Origin: a virus
Taxonomy: Duplodnaviria > Heunggongvirae > Uroviricota > Caudoviricetes
Length of the DNA: 42,657 nt
IMG/VR virus record: IMGVR_UViG_2541047850_000006
Span: 1 to 42,657 of that record
Reading direction: 5' to 3' (one strand)
Below are positions 2,636-35,738 of this stretch, in pieces. How positions within the stretch are numbered: the first letter of the stretch is position 1; each line of letters starts with the position of its first letter. A program made the position numbers and the translations under genes. The notes beneath the pieces were generated by a model that was not told the DNA's origin, ran no database searches, and saw only the letters and a list, made by a program, of their open reading frames with translations.

Positions 2636-3889
2636 TTATGATAGAGCCTTAATGCCCAAAACCTTGCTTTGTAACTCCAACTGCTTGGTATACGGTTTTG
2701 CCCGATAATAGGCTTTGATAATTTGTTCTGGCGTTGCACCGCCCGGGTCGAGTCCTTCCTCACCCAAACACGCAACTTTGACATTAAGACCGATACTGGT
2801 CAGTCGCCTAGCTGCGGGCATAGTGTTGCGTATAGCTTGCTTTTCACTATCCCACATCATGATCACATTACGTAACCCACGCGCCTTGAGCGTCAGGAAC
2901 GCGCCTAACTGATCTTCTGCATCCTGAGTGGTGTTGCCAGATAGATGCATCCCGAACGTTCCTATTGGTTCCACGTAATCACGTAATGTTTCTTCATCAA
3001 AAATAGCTCGTTTAACCCCCATAACATCGAACGCCCCCTCACAGACAACTACAGTCTGTTTGCCGACCGCATTATGGCCGTTGTAGAGAAACTTACCTGA
3101 AGCTGGAAGTTGCATAGGAAAGAGGTAGCGGCGTTCTGCTGTACCGGTAATGTCTCGTCCCTGAAATGTCTTCATTACCCCATCCAGATCGTAAATCGGT
3201 ATCAGTATTCGCATATCGAATATCTGCCCTTTAACCTGATCTGTATACGGATCTACATAAGCGTGCTTGCCTTCGACGCAGTATCGTAGGTCAAAATACT
3301 TTGCCATTTCAGGTGATATGTTTCGTTCAACCAGATAGTCTGGAAGACGGCCATCTATAGGAAGCTCGTAATGACGAGGGAGTGCAACTGGCCCCTCTAA
3401 CTCGACTGTGCTTGCAAGCACTAGCTCTTCTTTCTTTGGTGCCCACCCCTGGGAAAGAAGGGCGTTCTGCACATATTCCTCGAACTGTCGTCGTGATTTA
3501 CCGCTGTAGTGCTTGAGGAAGACCAGCTTATTGAACTGAATCTCTTCGGGATGATCACCAGCGAAGCATTTGCCGACGCCACTGGTCAGATTGAAATATA
3601 CCTTCCAGTTGGAGCTGCCGCATACCGGACACTCCTTGATATTCACTTCACGACCGCGAGCACTCACACCTCCACGTCGATAAACGATACCTTCAGTATC
3701 CAACCATTGTTCAAAATCTAATTCGGCAATTAGCTCTTTCAGCTCGCTCACGATAATTCCACTTTTAACAGGCAATATTATGACCAACATAAATGTTGAT
3801 ATAACATAAAGGCTCATGTGTTTTTCTTTTGTGGTTTGGCAAAAGAAAAGTTGTTTCACCAATGAATCAAGCGTGGAGGTGTTCTCCAC
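2636..3889 (-). CDS. DNA primase (zinc-binding domain + TOPRIM), T7 gp4 primase-domain-like; N-terminus probably over-extended (likely ATG near 3817)
   Basis: CPVCGSS...C..GDH zinc-ribbon-like motif; VVVCEGAFDVMG and MMWDSEKQA TOPRIM-like acidic motifs; the track start is GTG inside a hairpin at 3870-3892. Confidence 0.75.
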   Translation of the reverse strand: MENTSTLDSLVKQLFFCQTTKEKHMSLYVISTFMLVIILPVKSGIIVSELKELIAELDFEQWLDTEGIVYRRGGVSARGREVNIKECPVCGSSNWKVYFNLTSGVGKCFAGDHPEEIQFNKLVFLKHYSGKSRRQFEEYVQNALLSQGWAPKKEELVLASTVELEGPVALPRHYELPIDGRLPDYLVERNISPEMAKYFDLRYCVEGKHAYVDPYTDQVKGQIFDMRILIPIYDLDGVMKTFQGRDITGTAERRYLFPMQLPASGKFLYNGHNAVGKQTVVVCEGAFDVMGVKRAIFDEETLRDYVEPIGTFGMHLSGNTTQDAEDQLGAFLTLKARGLRNVIMMWDSEKQAIRNTMPAARRLTSIGLNVKVACLGEEGLDPGGATPEQIIKAYYRAKPYTKQLELQSKVLGIKALS

Positions 3890-3900
3890 GCTTATTTTTT
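3870..3900. terminator. Stem-loop (9-bp stem AGCGTGGAG/CTCCACGCT) between helicase and primase genes; followed by TATTTTTT on the plus strand
   Basis: Inverted repeat read directly; the U-tract is strong only for plus-strand (antisense) transcription and weak for the minus strand, so it may be an attenuator or an antisense terminator. Confidence 0.4.
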
Positions 3901-5239
3901 AGGTAACGTCTAAGATTCGCTCAATGAAGCGCATTTGTTCGAGGTTTTGTTTAACGCGAATGCTGATCCCTCCCTGTTGGTTACGTGAACCGGCAAAGTA
4001 GAGACGAGCCTCTCCTTTCGCTTCTTCTTCTTCGGTTTTGTTGATCGTTATTACCAGGTCAGCAATACGTACTTTTTCGATGTTGTCGGCAGCGTGCATC
4101 ATTGTGGCAACTTCTGACGCGCCACCTTCACGGTTTGTCTGCGATGCCGTGATCCCAGCAACGTTATGCTTGTCATAAAGAGCACGTAAATCGGTGTAGA
4201 TACTACGAATGTTGGCGCGATCATCACGAAGGTCATAACTGGCACGCATCAAATCTGCGTAGTCGACAACAACCATGTCAGGCACCATGCCGTTGGCTTT
4301 CATGCTGTTAAGCATACGGTCCAGATCTGCCGGTGACATACTTCCTGACGGACGCTCAACCACCCACAAACTACCAATCCCCTTCGTGGCTCCCAACTCT
4401 GCCAACTTACGGTGAACCTGATCGCGCCGTTCCACCAGCTTGGACATTTCCGTCTCCGACAATCTTGCATCAAAACGGTCAGATAAAATGGTGGTGTGAA
4501 CCTCCAGCGAGAGATACAGAACATTGTAGCCAGCAAGCGTTGCGTTTATGGAAAACTCACCCATTGCGGTCGATTTACCGGATTTAGCGAACCCCATGAA
4601 GAGCACCATTTCACGCTTCGCCCAGCCTTTTTGGTACAGCAACCTATCGAGCAGAGGGAGTCCAGTTGTAATGCTGTTTGGCACATACTCCTCTGAAGCC
4701 TCATATTCACGCGCTTTCAATCGCTCACTTGCGGAGGTGTAGTAGTCATAGATTCCGGTCGCTTCGTTCGATCCAATCTGCTGAACCTTGGCCATGATTG
4801 CCATCGCCCCCTGAAAGTCGCCCTTCTCTTTCAGTTCAGCAGCCTTAATCAGAGCATCATCAAACGCTACACTTTTTGCGAAGGTTGATACCTGGTCAAC
4901 CATGTACGAGGTATCGGACAATTTTTCTGCAAGAATGCGCTTAAACGCAGCAACAACATCGGCGAATAGTTCCTCACGGATAGTCTTATCGCGTTTCGCA
5001 CGCTTAAGCATATCCAGAATTGCAGATGAAGAGGGCGCGCTCTTGTACATACGGTAATAGCCCGAAACCATATTAACCAATATGGCATTGGCCGCATTGG
5101 CAAATTGGCTAGGCACAACCAGATCTCCCGCACGAGTAAGAAACTCGTGATCACGACAAAAATATGCCGTCAGTCTGTTCTGGAAATCTTCATCAAACTC
5201 TTCGGACAGCCCGCGTCCTGTATGGCAAAGTTCGGTCAT
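3899..5239 (-). CDS. Replicative DNA helicase, DnaB/RecA-fold (T7 gp4 helicase-domain-like)
   Basis: Walker A GFAKSGKST, Walker B MVVVDYADL, QTNREG region; ATG start with AAGGAAA SD. Confidence 0.8.
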   Translation of the reverse strand: MTELCHTGRGLSEEFDEDFQNRLTAYFCRDHEFLTRAGDLVVPSQFANAANAILVNMVSGYYRMYKSAPSSSAILDMLKRAKRDKTIREELFADVVAAFKRILAEKLSDTSYMVDQVSTFAKSVAFDDALIKAAELKEKGDFQGAMAIMAKVQQIGSNEATGIYDYYTSASERLKAREYEASEEYVPNSITTGLPLLDRLLYQKGWAKREMVLFMGFAKSGKSTAMGEFSINATLAGYNVLYLSLEVHTTILSDRFDARLSETEMSKLVERRDQVHRKLAELGATKGIGSLWVVERPSGSMSPADLDRMLNSMKANGMVPDMVVVDYADLMRASYDLRDDRANIRSIYTDLRALYDKHNVAGITASQTNREGGASEVATMMHAADNIEKVRIADLVITINKTEEEEAKGEARLYFAGSRNQQGGISIRVKQNLEQMRFIERILDVT

Positions 5240-5282: not shown

Positions 5283-6032
5283 TTAATTATATAGGGGATC
5301 AATAAACCACCGTGCTTCTTCCAGTTCTTCTGGAAAGTGGGCGGAAATAAGGCGCTCTGGAACGATTTCCATTAGCCAGATAGCGGAGAAAATTGCGCGT
5401 ATGCGCTTGCTGCGAGGGATGGTGCGCAAACGCTCCAGAATCCACTCAAAATAGCTTTCCTGAATCGGGTTGAACTGCATGTCTCCCATATGCTTAAAGC
5501 TAACCAGAGAGTCATCCAGACGGGTTGTTGCGCGTCTGGCTAATTTCTCTTCAAATATCTCAATCAGTTCTGGCTGCCATAAATGCTGCGGACGCGGCAG
5601 CTTGTCCCACAGACGTCGTGCAGCTGCGGAAAGCACGGTGGAGATAAAGTAGTCGTATGAGCAACAATAGCGGTCAGCAAACTGGCGTGCTTTCCATAAC
5701 GACGTTTTATTGGCAGTCGACAACTCCTGATAAGGCAGGCGTTTTAACCCGGTGGTGAACGGAGCTGTTTCAAAGTGTTCGCGACCGTGCGTCAGCATGA
5801 TATTTGAGTACTGACGTTTGTATGCCTCCGTAAAAAGACAGGTGGCCATGAGAGGATGCATGTCGCAGTAATCAAACCACTTCGTCTCGAAGAGTTCAGC
5901 CTCGTCTTTACAGCGCGACAAACCAATGTTTTCAGCGACCCACTTGTCCATAACAGCGGTATTCCACTCTGTCATGAAGTCGTACTGGTCGTTGTCGATG
6001 GTATCGAAAAAGATTTGGCTCATGTGGCTCAC
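5283..6032 (-). CDS. Hypothetical protein (about 246 aa from ATG at ~6023)
   Basis: Track ORF (GTG start); an in-frame ATG 9 nt downstream has an AGGTGA SD; a palindromic motif overlaps the start region (6036-6055). Confidence 0.5.
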   Translation of the reverse strand: MSHMSQIFFDTIDNDQYDFMTEWNTAVMDKWVAENIGLSRCKDEAELFETKWFDYCDMHPLMATCLFTEAYKRQYSNIMLTHGREHFETAPFTTGLKRLPYQELSTANKTSLWKARQFADRYCCSYDYFISTVLSAAARRLWDKLPRPQHLWQPELIEIFEEKLARRATTRLDDSLVSFKHMGDMQFNPIQESYFEWILERLRTIPRSKRIRAIFSAIWLMEIVPERLISAHFPEELEEARWFIDPLYN

Positions 6033-6137
6033 CTGGTAGGTAGTTACTTACTTATTACAATGAGCGGATGATAGCGACTGGTGGCAGTTTTTGGAAGTGG
6101 AAACGAAAGGGAGTTGTTCTGGTTGTGTCTTTTAAAA

Positions 6138-6196
6138 GACCTGCTTCTGTATATATTTAATAAGTTACTTATTATTTATATATACGGAAGCAGGCA
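6138..6196. repeat. Long near-perfect palindrome A (about 17-bp arms CCTGCTTCTGTATATAT / ATATATACGGAAGCAGG around an AT-rich core AATAAGTTACTTATT); copy 1 of 2
   Basis: Read directly; a second copy in inverted orientation at 35661-35716. Confidence 0.75.
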
Positions 6197-6309
6197 TACA
6201 TAACTTGTCGTCTTAGACGCCCAGAAGCTCTACACTTTGAGCCTGTTAAATTGATTAAAAACTTATGTGTAAAATAGAACGCATTAGTCAGTAGCTAAGA
6301 GATGCAATA

Positions 6310-7077
6310 ATGGACGATTTATCGGTATACGCGAGATCATTGGATAAGGCTAAATACTATGTTTACTGTCTCTATGATACAGAAGACAAGATGAAAAGAC
6401 CGTTTTACATAGGAAAAGGCAAATCGACTCGTTGTCTCGATCACATCAAGTATCCCGATGACTCTCCCAAATCCATGCGGATCAAAGAACTTTTGGCTAA
6501 TAAAAAATTAGGCATAGATATACTTCGTCATGGTATGGATGAAACCACAGCCAAACTTGTTGAGGCGACATGCATCGACCTTATGGGGGTCGGAGAGCTT
6601 ACGAATAAGGTTCGAGGAAGTGGTTCCATGATGGGCAGAATATCACTGGACGCCTACCATCACTTAGTGCTGCAAGAGGAAACTGAAATTGCTCCTGAGC
6701 ACGCCGGTCTTGCCTTCCTGCTAAACAGCACCTACAAGTCAGGAATGTCCGCTCTGGCATTATATGAAGCTACGCGTGGCGTATGGGCAAAGGTTCCAAG
6801 AGACGAGAATCTCAAATATGCCTACGCTACATATGGTGGGCTAATAATGGAAGTTTATCGGATTGAATGCTGGGTCAAAGCCGGTTCTCAGCAGTACTTT
6901 ACAAGGGATATAGCTCTTGGCCCCGACACAAAACGTTATGAATTTGTTGGCAGAATAGCCGATGAGCATATTAGAAAACTGTATGTAGGCAAATTAATCA
7001 AGAAGCCACCAAGCTACGGTAGCCCTTTTGTGAAGGTTGGAGTGGTTAGGACTGAACATAGTGTTAGCGCGGCATAA
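6310..7077 (+). CDS. GIY-YIG nuclease-domain protein (255 aa), stand-alone on the opposite strand
   Basis: N-terminal YYVYCLYD...PFYIGKGK...R..H and downstream Glu/Asn consistent with a GIY-YIG catalytic core; ATG start; followed by a strong terminator. Confidence 0.6.
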   Translation: MDDLSVYARSLDKAKYYVYCLYDTEDKMKRPFYIGKGKSTRCLDHIKYPDDSPKSMRIKELLANKKLGIDILRHGMDETTAKLVEATCIDLMGVGELTNKVRGSGSMMGRISLDAYHHLVLQEETEIAPEHAGLAFLLNSTYKSGMSALALYEATRGVWAKVPRDENLKYAYATYGGLIMEVYRIECWVKAGSQQYFTRDIALGPDTKRYEFVGRIADEHIRKLYVGKLIKKPPSYGSPFVKVGVVRTEHSVSAA

Positions 7078-7093
7078 AGCTGACACTGTAGTT

Positions 7094-7140
7094 ATGCATT
7101 GGCGCAATGTACGCGCCAATGCATGATTTTTAACCTTTTT
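7094..7140 (+). terminator. Rho-independent terminator (12-bp perfect stem ATGCATTGGCGC...GCGCCAATGCAT, then GATTTTTAACCTTTTTT)
   Basis: Inverted repeat plus T-tract read directly; sits between the convergent GIY-YIG and partition genes. Confidence 0.65.
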
Positions 7141-7489
7141 TCATCAACTCTCGTTTGATTTCATCGGTACGCATCGTGACATCGGCAGCTGTGATCGCCT
7201 CGTTCAGTTTCACGATGTCCTCGATTTCCTGCGGTGACTTCTCTGCCAGATGGAAAATGGCTGCGCGAATCACGTCAGAACGGGTGAACTTCTCGAAACG
7301 AGGGATGAACTTCATCATCTCCAGCAGTTCGAAGTATTCGTCTTCCAGTGACATTGTGCGGCTTTTAATTTTCTCTTTGCCACGAGTCGGGCGTCCCTGT
7401 GGTCTGACTGGTTGGCGCAAAGGAGTTGTGTTCTTAGCCGGTGCATCAGGCTCTTTGCGCTTTGCTAGGTCACCCATTTTCATGGACAT
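7130..7489 (-). CDS. ParG-like ribbon-helix-helix centromere-binding protein (partition adaptor)
   Basis: Basic disordered N-terminus followed by an RHH-like segment RTMSLEDEYFELLEMMKF...SDVIRAAIFHLAE; its start overlaps the stop of the upstream ParA gene by 1 nt. Confidence 0.55.
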   Translation of the reverse strand: MSMKMGDLAKRKEPDAPAKNTTPLRQPVRPQGRPTRGKEKIKSRTMSLEDEYFELLEMMKFIPRFEKFTRSDVIRAAIFHLAEKSPQEIEDIVKLNEAITAADVTMRTDEIKRELMKKG

Positions 7490-8157
7490 TATTCTTCTTC
7501 CTCCAGACTCAACAGATAATCTACAAATTCTTCAAACTCGGCTTCCGCCTTTTTGTCGCGCTCGCTACCGGTCATTTCAAAGATAGAACGACCAGACTCT
7601 TCCGCATCATCATAGACGTTGCGGTTATATAGATTGACTGGCGCAGACTCGATGCCAAACGTCTCGACAATCTCTTTAGCCGCCAGAATGCGAGACACTT
7701 GTGATGGCAAAGCCGGGCACTGGTTCATGACCGCGCGGACCTTCACTTTATCGTTTACATTACGAACATTGTCGATAATAGGATCGATGTCACGCAGGGA
7801 TTTCAAATCACGACGCTTAGGACGAAGCGGGATAATGATAACGTCGGCCATCAGCATCGCTTGTCGCTGAATTTCGGAGTCGAAGCCACCAGCATCTACC
7901 ACTACAAACTCAGCTCTACCCTGAAGCGATTTTAGGTGCTTAATGATGTCATCCTGAACGTATGCAAAAGGAATCAGCTCAAGGTCTTCGTTCTGTCGAC
8001 GGTCTTCACACCAGCTCGTTGTCGTGCGCTGAATATCTATATCGGTAATATAAACCTTCTTCTTCTTTTTGACTTTCAGGCAAACGGCAATTTGCTGGGC
8101 AACGGTGGATTTGCCAGGCCCGCCCTTTGTGCCGCCAACCACAAAGATCTTGGTCAT
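7489..8157 (-). CDS. parA: ParA/ParF-type partition ATPase (small type Ib, 222 aa)
   Basis: Deviant Walker A GGTKGGPGKST near the N-terminus; size and absence of an N-terminal HTH fit the ParF class; AGGGAA SD. Confidence 0.8.
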   Translation of the reverse strand: MTKIFVVGGTKGGPGKSTVAQQIAVCLKVKKKKKVYITDIDIQRTTTSWCEDRRQNEDLELIPFAYVQDDIIKHLKSLQGRAEFVVVDAGGFDSEIQRQAMLMADVIIIPLRPKRRDLKSLRDIDPIIDNVRNVNDKVKVRAVMNQCPALPSQVSRILAAKEIVETFGIESAPVNLYNRNVYDDAEESGRSIFEMTGSERDKKAEAEFEEFVDYLLSLEEEE

Positions 8158-8319: not shown

Positions 8320-9096
8320 TTAGTGGTTGGTAAACCTGGCATCAAATGTTGTAACGCCCACTTCAATGTGGCGGTCTTCTTTGGAGATGATGGTGAGAAT
8401 CTGACTAGATGGGTCTATGCTGACAGCCATAGGGTTCCAGTGACGTAACTGAGCCTCTCTGTTCAATAGCAGCGCATCCCACGGTTTGACGCCATTCTGC
8501 CCAATACCACCCTCAACAAGGACATCTATAAATTCTTTATTTAAATTGTCATAGATTTGGACACGCCCGACCAGAAGCATACCGACCGCCCAAATTCTGG
8601 CACCGTAAACCGTCTGATGGTCATCACATACCACATGGTCATGCCAATTGAGAAGGAAATTGTAAACTCTTCTAGCAAGTCCCTTTTGTTCCTTTGAAGG
8701 GGTTACAAATGCCCCTTTGATCTGGACACCAAGGTGAGAGCCTTTTTGTGAGCGAAACTGGAAACGCTTGTAGACGAACCTGGCAATCTGAATGCCGTCA
8801 TCATCTTCTTGTTCATCACCAACTAACTCACGAACACTATGAACTATCTCTGCTTCTGAATACCCCTGCTCGTCAAGATCCATTGCATGTTCTTGAAGCC
8901 AATCTGCATCATGGTCGCCTACAAATGACACTGTCAAACAGTAATCATAATTAGACCCGATCAAAGACCACTCTGTGAGCCGTAAAACAGAAAAATCAGA
9001 GTTAACCATGTAGCCAACTCTGATTTTCTCTCTTGCTTCACATTCAGGGAAATCTGACAGTACTTTTGAATACTCTGCTATGAATGATGGTGACAT
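8320..9096 (-). CDS. Hypothetical protein (258 aa)
   Basis: Track ORF, ATG start abutting the stop of 9097..9495; has its own terminator; no confident domain (a GDHDADW segment is only weakly suggestive). Confidence 0.5.
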   Translation of the reverse strand: MSPSFIAEYSKVLSDFPECEAREKIRVGYMVNSDFSVLRLTEWSLIGSNYDYCLTVSFVGDHDADWLQEHAMDLDEQGYSEAEIVHSVRELVGDEQEDDDGIQIARFVYKRFQFRSQKGSHLGVQIKGAFVTPSKEQKGLARRVYNFLLNWHDHVVCDDHQTVYGARIWAVGMLLVGRVQIYDNLNKEFIDVLVEGGIGQNGVKPWDALLLNREAQLRHWNPMAVSIDPSSQILTIISKEDRHIEVGVTTFDARFTNH

Positions 9097-9495
9097 TTAG
9101 TTAGCAAGCCGCATATCCGTAGATGAATCCAGTTTTGCTATTTTAACATCTACGCGGTATTTATCTTTGATAAATTTAGCTATTTTGCTTTCAATCTCAT
9201 AGAAAGCATCCTGTTCACAACGCACAACATCGGGAAACTGTTTTTCTGGCTTAACAAGAAAACGTAACCGATTGTTGAGCACCATCATTTCTGCAAACAA
9301 TTTGATGGTAAACTTGCCTTCTTCAACGTCACTTTTAAGGTTAACGATGAAACGCTGATCCTTAAGCATACCCGGTTTGTTCATTTCACGAATTTGGAGC
9401 GAGTCATTCCAATGCCGCAACGGAACCGATGCGATCATCTTGGTACAGTCTCTTATCGTCTGAATAGAACGAGATGCGTTAAGCGCAGTATGCAT
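9097..9495 (-). CDS. Hypothetical protein (132 aa)
   Basis: ATG start with strong AAGGTGG SD; 174-bp intergenic region upstream. Confidence 0.5.
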   Translation of the reverse strand: MHTALNASRSIQTIRDCTKMIASVPLRHWNDSLQIREMNKPGMLKDQRFIVNLKSDVEEGKFTIKLFAEMMVLNNRLRFLVKPEKQFPDVVRCEQDAFYEIESKIAKFIKDKYRVDVKIAKLDSSTDMRLAN

Positions 9496-35640: not shown

Positions 35641-35738
35641 GTTTAATTAGGTCTGGGCATGTCTTATTAAGCCTGCTTCTGTATATATATTTAATAAGTT
35701 ATTTATTATTTATATACAGAAGCAGGTCTTTAAAATAA
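35641..35738. repeat. Long palindrome B (core 35661-35716 CCTGCTTCTGTATATA...TATATACAGAAGCAGG with extended imperfect symmetry GTCTGGG...CCCAGAC); copy 2 of 2, inverted relative to copy A
   Basis: Read directly; lies between the wHTH gene stop and the terS start region. Confidence 0.75.

Follow-up and report, generated by a model that had tools for sequence, protein, structure and literature searches.

The window analysed here is a 42,657-nucleotide stretch from a virus of the Caudoviricetes (IMG/VR record IMGVR_UViG_2541047850_000006), and its plus-strand gene at 6310-7077 encodes a protein of 255 amino acids (aa) with a GIY-YIG nuclease domain. It was found that this protein belongs to the PD-T4-3/CMoRE family. 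Judged from its sequence, the gene probably specifies a type IV restriction nuclease that works as a single protein and depends on DNA modification, and that a temperate SSU5-like phage-plasmid carries as defence cargo. An initial annotation of the window had proposed a homing-endonuclease insertion or a nuclease with an exclusion or anti-plasmid function instead.

CMoRE, as PD-T4-3 has been renamed, is a single-protein type IV restriction enzyme of E. coli APEC O1 and O157:H7 (PDB 9U7U, 9U7Z, 9U75 and 9U8D), which degrades DNA containing 5-hydroxymethylcytosine (5hmC) or glucosylated 5hmC, spares DNA with cytosine or 5-methylcytosine, and blocks T-even phages (PMC12923530). An additional tyrosine is present in its N-terminal GIY-YIG domain (GIYxY-YIG), which cuts the DNA whose modification a novel C-terminal domain recognises. 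The cuts follow the pattern CN11/N9G and leave 2-nt 3' overhangs. Activity is abolished by mutating Y17, Y19, Y31 (Y17, Y19 and Y33 in the window protein) and other key active-site residues; the enzyme acts as a tetramer, and in "most" members an acidic loop over the active site blocks the cutting of ordinary DNA (PMC12923530). In the text of the original PD-T4-3 paper (PMC9519451) the string "PD-T4-3" is absent, and a GIY-YIG nuclease is mentioned once.

The PADLOC profile PDLC04031 (PD-T4-3) matched aa 11-231 of the window protein with an E-value of 1.6e-23, spanning profile positions 11-238 of 256 (89%). PHROG 5356, whose function is not annotated, matched over the full length (E 2e-99), and the Pfam family LEM-3_GIY-YIG (PF22945) matched aa 32-104 above the gathering score (E 5.6e-7), while no match was obtained in NCBIfam. 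When the protein was compared with all PDB sequences by phmmer, only CMoRE entries were found (9U7U/9U7Z and 9U75/9U8D, E 2e-15), and the alignment of aa 12-230 with residues 17-243 of the CMoRE chain covered both domains. The family is large, with 1,778 representatives when E ≤1e-3 was required and 640 when the limit was E ≤1e-10. The parts of the gene are as follows.

6310 to 7077, plus strand: PD-T4-3/CMoRE-family gene, 255 aa, ATG start (open reading frame (ORF), PADLOC, PHROG, phmmer, Foldseek, and the ratio of nonsynonymous to synonymous substitution rates (dN/dS))
6343 to 6624, plus strand: GIY-YIG domain (Pfam PF22945, invariant residues, CMoRE alignment)
6358 to 6366, plus strand: GIYxY tyrosines Y17 and Y19, in the motif YYVYCLYD
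6406 to 6408, plus strand: Y33 of YIG, in the motif PFYIGKGK
6430 to 6432, plus strand: R41, from the catalytic-site alignment, which also places H45
6562 to 6564, plus strand: E85, from the same alignment
6604 to 6606, plus strand: N99, from the same alignment
6445 to 6474, plus strand: short loop between alpha2 and alpha3 (aa 46-55, IKYPDDSPKS), where CMoRE has its acidic autoinhibitory lid
6631 to 7044, plus strand: aa 108-245, C-terminal domain with homology to CMoRE's modification-sensing domain

The motifs YYVYCLYD and PFYIGKGK and the arginine from which a GIY-YIG core had initially been recognised were all present (Y17, Y19, Y33 and R41), and the core was borne out by the alignment of the catalytic residues. 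Y17, Y19, Y33, R41, H45, E85 and N99 were invariant in 35 close homologues, and 105 or more of the 111 family representatives retained them. The same residues align with those of CMoRE, including the catalytic residues that were mutated in that enzyme. Two cysteines, C42 (6433-6435, beside R41) and C88 (6571-6573, three residues past E85), were also invariant in the 35 close homologues; the corresponding positions are Ala, Val or Leu in CMoRE and in most of the wider family.

The C-terminal region had been left unassigned, which held with respect to Pfam, where no family was matched, but it proved to be homologous to the modification-sensing domain of CMoRE. The C-terminal 148 residues alone matched only CMoRE (9U7U/9U75) in the PDB, with E 1.9e-4 for the single sequence, and a C-terminal-domain profile built from 20 sequences again matched only CMoRE (E 3.3e-8). 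The core residues of the sensing domain were conserved between the two proteins. An AlphaFold2 model of the nuclease, made with 35 homologues, had a mean pLDDT of 81, and in a Foldseek search of the PDB its top four hits were CMoRE structures (9U75, 9U7U and 9U7Z among them; E ~1e-11, probability 1.0), followed by the GIY-YIG domains of UvrC. Like CMoRE, the window protein is thus the product of a single gene of ~255 aa, with a GIYxY-YIG domain, catalytic Arg, Glu and Asn, a flexible linker and a homologous C-terminal domain; the cassette holds no partner gene, and both genes are carried by temperate mobile elements.

Comparison of the nuclease gene with three alleles gave dN/dS of 0.08-0.12, and at a ratio of ~0.1 the ORF is to be regarded as a functional coding gene under purifying selection. 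On the proposed reading, the C-terminal domain would sense a base modification of incoming phage DNA, the 5-hydroxymethyl- or glucosyl-hydroxymethyl-cytosine of T-even phages being the likeliest, and the N-terminal GIYxY-YIG domain (Y17, Y19, Y33, R41, E85, N99) would then cut the modified DNA. The unmodified host chromosome and the DNA of the phage-plasmid itself would be spared, and the lysogen, hence the phage-plasmid, would be protected from virulent competitors. By analogy with CMoRE, we infer that the substrate would be modified cytosine, that the gene would be expressed in lysogeny, and that self-cleavage would be avoided even without the CMoRE lid.

Several observations weigh against this reading. 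Identity to CMoRE was only ~28-30%, and the acidic lid was absent: the window protein has 10 residues with DD at this position, compared with 18 residues with DDDE or DDDD in CMoRE. In the model, helices 41-47 and 53-63 are separated by only ~5 residues, and the short alpha2-alpha3 loop was found in 35/35 close homologues and in 66/111 family representatives. It was reported that removing the lid charges in CMoRE led to activity on ordinary DNA and to toxicity (PMC12923530), which implies that the control of self-cleavage must differ in this lid-less clade. The reported 5hmC contact of CMoRE is the backbone oxygen of Y127, which aligns with L122 of the window protein; because the contact is a main-chain atom, substrate specificity is not deducible from the sequence. 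The model and CMoRE superposed poorly as whole chains (global TM-score 0.38, root-mean-square deviation 16 Å), which was attributed to a differing orientation of the domains across a low-confidence linker (aa 94-107), and the comparison was for this reason based on searches with sequences and profiles of the individual domains rather than on the TM-score. Finally, no convincing promoter was found for the nuclease gene. A consensus promoter and terminator scan of 5950-7250 flagged nothing, and a manual scan gave only a weak best match (−35 TTAAAT at 6246-6251, an 18-nt spacer, −10 TAAAAT at 6270-6275).

With the clade-specific cysteine pair C42/C88, the missing lid and the low identity set the window clade apart from CMoRE, and it is conceivable, although unlikely, that this clade senses another hypermodification (for instance adenine of the Mom type, or a different adduct of cytosine or thymidine) or is controlled differently, so that its phage range would be unlike that of CMoRE. 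Identity to CMoRE of ~30%, the absence of the lid throughout the clade, and a known 5hmC contact through a backbone atom, which leaves specificity unconstrained, are all in line with such a shift. A Capnocytophaga homologue that is 48% identical to PD-T4-3 (PD-T4-3Capno) is also modification-dependent and needs its GIY-YIG active site, and it cuts both T4 DNA and Mom-modified Mu DNA (PMC12366544). These results indicate that the general mechanism is conserved and the target plastic. PD-T4-3Capno resembles the window protein as a divergent family member, and its remaining modification-dependent shows that function can be kept across a large sequence distance; the cutting of Mom-modified Mu DNA was reported for the Capnocytophaga enzyme. 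Against a changed target stand the conserved core residues of the sensing domain and the dependence on modified cytosine of T4 restriction by all members characterised so far.

The carrier and the surroundings of the gene also speak for defence cargo of a phage-plasmid. The window region shared 99.9% identity with Escherichia phage PhiR41_1 and 98.4% with phage CMS-2020a, and was collinear with two other phages, Cyrano and Salmonella phage SSU5; its flanks were common to 704 PLSDB plasmids, mostly typed as non-mobilizable. On these grounds the window is assigned, from sequence comparison, to an SSU5-group phage-plasmid. A literature search on PhiR41_1 and on the cos site or palindrome of SSU5 returned nothing relevant. 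The features around the gene are listed below.

2636 to 3889, minus strand: primase-like gene (neighbouring ORF)
3899 to 5239, minus strand: DnaB-like helicase gene (neighbouring ORF)
5283 to 6032, minus strand: 249-aa backbone gene, left flank of the slot, present in all relatives
6116 to 6226, no strand assigned: palindrome A, left edge of the slot, with inner arms at 6140-6156 and 6178-6194, outer arms GTTCTGG at 6116-6122 and CCAGAA at 6221-6226, and an AT-rich centre
6195 to 6309, plus strand: cassette DNA upstream of the gene, which travels with it and contains a weak promoter candidate and a ribosome-binding site (AAGAG)
7094 to 7131, plus strand: terminator-like hairpin and T-run borne by the cassette, between the convergent nuclease and parB genes
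7130 to 8157, minus strand: partition operon, right flank of the slot, with ParA at 7489-8157 and a small parB-like gene at 7130-7489 (ParA/MipZ Pfam matches)
8320 to 9096, minus strand: 258-aa ORF (neighbouring ORF)
9097 to 9495, minus strand: 132-aa ORF (neighbouring ORF)

Among the long ORFs of the locus, the nuclease gene was the sole plus-strand gene, in the midst of minus-strand primase, helicase and parAB genes, exactly as initially described; with primase-like, DnaB-like, ParA and parB-like neighbours, the label of a replication/partition region was also correct. The 249-aa gene, the parB-like gene and the ORFs at 8320-9495 matched no Pfam or PADLOC family. Where a strong terminator had been noted downstream, a terminator-like structure was confirmed, although the pattern scan had missed it: folding revealed a hairpin at 7094-7124 with 12 perfect pairs (16 when folded), followed by GATTTTT, with a folding free energy (dG) of −25.1 kcal/mol and a z-score of −5.4, and none of 200 shuffled sequences was equally stable.

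To define the edges of the slot, nine relatives were compared with the window by BLAST. Homology stopped at 6194-6198, in the right arm of the palindrome, and restarted at 7126-7134, at the parB stop codon. Between these points the relatives carried the following.

Cyrano and SSU5: DUF2971 protein (PADLOC candidate PDC-S31)
pGMI17-003_2: KAP-family nucleoside triphosphatase (NTPase; PDC-S49)
Cronobacter pH322_1: PD-T7-5 (E 5.5e-138)
pLAU-OXA1: 352-aa gene without a family
WEM25 p1: 225-aa gene without a family
pSAN1-1735: empty slot, flanks ~26 bp apart

A wider census was made in IMG/VR, where 80 loci were fetched via the conserved 249-aa gene, 74 of them with both flanks; combinations of cargo were counted under each family. 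The slot held a GIY-YIG gene in 24 loci, a DUF2971/PDC-S31 gene in 18, a gene for a 351-374-aa protein in 17, pairs of small membrane proteins in 8, a KAP NTPase/PDC-S49 gene in 6, PD-T7-5 in 4 (E 1.5e-139) and a lipoprotein-like gene in one. It was empty in 5/74, three of which had a 98%-identical flanking protein (empty-site loci were seen in L005, L010, L031, L035, L077 and L085). Altogether at least seven unrelated types of cargo were found, in both orientations, about half of them without a known defence annotation. Every alternative allele had its own, different GC-rich hairpin beside the parB stop codon, indicating that an insulating terminator is a general property of the cassettes in this slot. 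A fixed slot between core genes, alternatives enriched in defence genes, and turnover above the divergence of the backbone characterise this locus as a hotspot. In these respects it resembles the defence hotspots of temperate phages and satellites (e.g. those of P2/P4), in which alternative cassettes of one or a few genes with their own terminators also occupy a fixed site between core genes in either orientation and cassette exchange outpaces backbone divergence. Unlike those, it lies in an SSU5-group plasmid-prophage, between the parB stop codon and a long AT-rich palindrome.

The 351-374-aa protein (e.g. L006, 2614-3672, plus strand; also L018, L019 and L023) was the second commonest single occupant, occurring alone or with DUF2971, and had no Pfam or PADLOC match; in L088 its gene was split by a frameshift. 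Judged by its position, it is a candidate new defence gene. The DUF2971 cargo was plus-oriented in L061, L067-L069 and L071 and minus-oriented in L015, L016 and L034. As the junctions and terminator hairpins differed, the two orientations suggest independent acquisitions or inversion.

The cassette with the nuclease gene consists of ~115 bp of upstream DNA, the gene and the hairpin, and diverged backbones have recently swapped it. In five loci (L050-L053 and L057), the nuclease gene was 98.6-98.8% identical to that of the window and the 111 bp upstream of it were ~98% identical, whereas the flanks had diverged (249-aa gene 83-86%, parAB 86-87% identical). For the upstream part of the cassette, identity in backbones with flanks of 83-87% was put at 98-100%. 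Since the identity of the cassette was far above that of the flanks, it must have moved between backbones. Mosaic backbones were also observed (L049, L055 and L059), with parAB 98-99% identical to the window and the 249-aa gene only 82-87% identical; one near-identical and one diverged flank imply a recombination breakpoint in or beside the slot. No integrase or transposase is present, and the exchange most probably proceeded by homologous recombination in the flanks. The initial view of an independently acquired, insulated cassette was thereby substantiated (~98.7% identity for the cassette versus 83-87% for the flanks), and comparison with relatives lacking the gene, which had been suggested at the same time, revealed empty sites and a gene that is not universal at this position.

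Outside the phage-plasmids, homologues of 71-77% identity occurred as solo genes in unrelated chromosomal or plasmid settings with no shared flanks. A Salmonella homologue (76% identical) was a solo chromosomal gene beside guaA, with 71% nucleotide identity in the coding region only; with similarity so confined, no common transposable unit could be identified. A homologue from the 71-77% group on a Leclercia plasmid lay among unrelated genes, and a classical CMoRE-type gene (257 aa, 32% identical) was located beside a type II restriction-modification system on a prophage-like E. coli plasmid. More distant homologues were encountered in jumbo phages (ON287375; MK994515, Serratia phage Moabite; MN642089, Klebsiella N1M2; JN627160, Pseudomonas OBP), which were 25-36% identical over 39-88% of the length and were annotated as homing endonucleases or G-I-Y Y-I-G endonucleases. 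In these virulent phages they may be PD-T4-3-type modification-dependent nucleases serving phage-phage competition.

A free-standing GIY-YIG homing endonuclease, which would cleave related phage-plasmids at the allele without the gene and multiply through repair that copies the gene into this site, is very unlikely to account for this pattern. I-TevI-like enzymes combine the GIY-YIG domain with C-terminal, sequence-tolerant DNA-binding modules (zinc finger, NUMOD, IENR1/helix-turn-helix (HTH)). The window protein shares with them the GIY-YIG fold and catalytic domain, a length close to that of I-TevI and a phage-encoded origin; the presence/absence polymorphism at a fixed site, empty sites included, the better conservation of the cassette than of its flanks, and the homing annotation of the jumbo-phage homologues would also suit such an element. 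However, its C-terminal part corresponds to the sensing domain of CMoRE, and Pfam revealed no zinc-finger, NUMOD or IENR1/HTH module at E up to 1. Unrelated non-nuclease cargo fills the same slot in either orientation, demonstrating that occupancy does not require this nuclease, and the insertion is intergenic beside a hairpin rather than in or next to a conserved target gene. The 71-77%-identical homologues stand alone in unrelated contexts without shared flanks, i.e. beyond any homing context. The homing-endonuclease insertion initially proposed was therefore not supported.

A maintenance or anti-plasmid nuclease of the replication/partition module, excluding rival plasmids or resolving replication intermediates, is hardly tenable. 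In its favour, the gene lies between the replication genes and parAB, and repair nucleases such as UvrC likewise contain GIY-YIG domains. However, most relatives that share the replication/partition genes lack the nuclease gene, the empty-site elements among them; no similarity to known resolution or partition factors was found in Pfam or NCBIfam; and in the one study that addressed this, PD-T4-3, which is active in a native E. coli host, left vertical plasmid transmission unaffected in E. coli NILS69 (10.1101/2024.12.20.629700). The latter result also argues against the anti-plasmid half of the nuclease function initially suggested, whereas exclusion, in the sense of excluding phages, agrees in spirit with modification-dependent restriction.

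Palindrome A had been described as bounding the gene upstream. The palindrome is real, its 16-mer arm occurring 4 times in the window versus 0.01 expected, but it was conserved in every relative, whether the site was filled or empty, and is part of the conserved backbone rather than of the inserted gene. A second copy, 82-86% identical to palindrome A, was found at the following position.

35652 to 35735: second palindrome copy, inner arms at 35672-35687 and 35711-35726, outer arms GGTCTGGG/CCCAGACC

This copy is located directly upstream of a DNA-binding (small-terminase-like) gene and the large-terminase gene, and it contains both ends of the GenBank entries of SSU5 and of Cyrano, which are linear. 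It may represent a packaging/cos region, or an assembly break at the hairpin. For both palindromes, packaging sites, centromeres, terminators or merely assembly-breaking hairpins are candidate explanations.

The family, its mechanism and its presence in such phage-plasmids have already been published, and nothing here is conceptually new in that respect; in a 2025 preprint, DefenseFinder calls of PD-T4-3 and PD-T7-5 were reported in SSU5-group phage-plasmids of E. coli and Shigella (10.1101/2025.09.12.675607). A literature search found no description of a slot between parB and the palindrome, and the exact slot, the evidence for cassette exchange and the lid-less state of the clade appear not to have been described yet. 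A more far-reaching proposal concerns both the clade and the slot: the lid-less clade would be functionally distinct, with another modified-base specificity or another safeguard against self-cleavage, and the slot between parB and a packaging-site-like palindrome would serve the SSU5 group specially for exchanging defence cassettes in association with hairpins. We regard this as tentative and rather unlikely. If it were true, the frequent unannotated occupants, notably the 351-374-aa protein, would be new defence genes.

The label of a possible homing endonuclease is hereby replaced by a specific, testable function, namely type IV restriction against phages with modified cytosine. The carrier type is common in E. 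coli, and the nuclease was encoded at an identity of at least 95% by 135 PLSDB plasmids, nearly all from Escherichia. T-even-like phages would be blocked in such lysogens, which would matter for host range in phage therapy and bears on the competition of phage-plasmids with virulent phages. The lid-less clade would offer a natural experiment in how CMoRE-type enzymes spare host DNA, and the slot yields a short list of unannotated candidate defence genes.

Two further observations were made on the right side of the slot. The Cyrano homologue of the parB-like gene (CYRAN_29; L002, 4818-5177) is labelled "RelE/ParE putative toxin", while the window gene at 7130-7489 had no Pfam match. The toxin label looks doubtful, as a gene of this size and position would suit a type Ib ParA as its small, centromere-binding partner. 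A second variable slot was observed beyond parA, where the window ORFs at 8320-9096 and 9097-9495 are swapped in relatives. At this place no genes were annotated in pSAN1-1735, in which parA lies directly before lysis-module genes, and other genes were found in SSU5 and pGMI17-003_2; Cyrano, pLAU-OXA1, WEM25 p1 and Cronobacter pH322_1 carried a DUF1778 and GNAT (KacAT-type) toxin-antitoxin pair.

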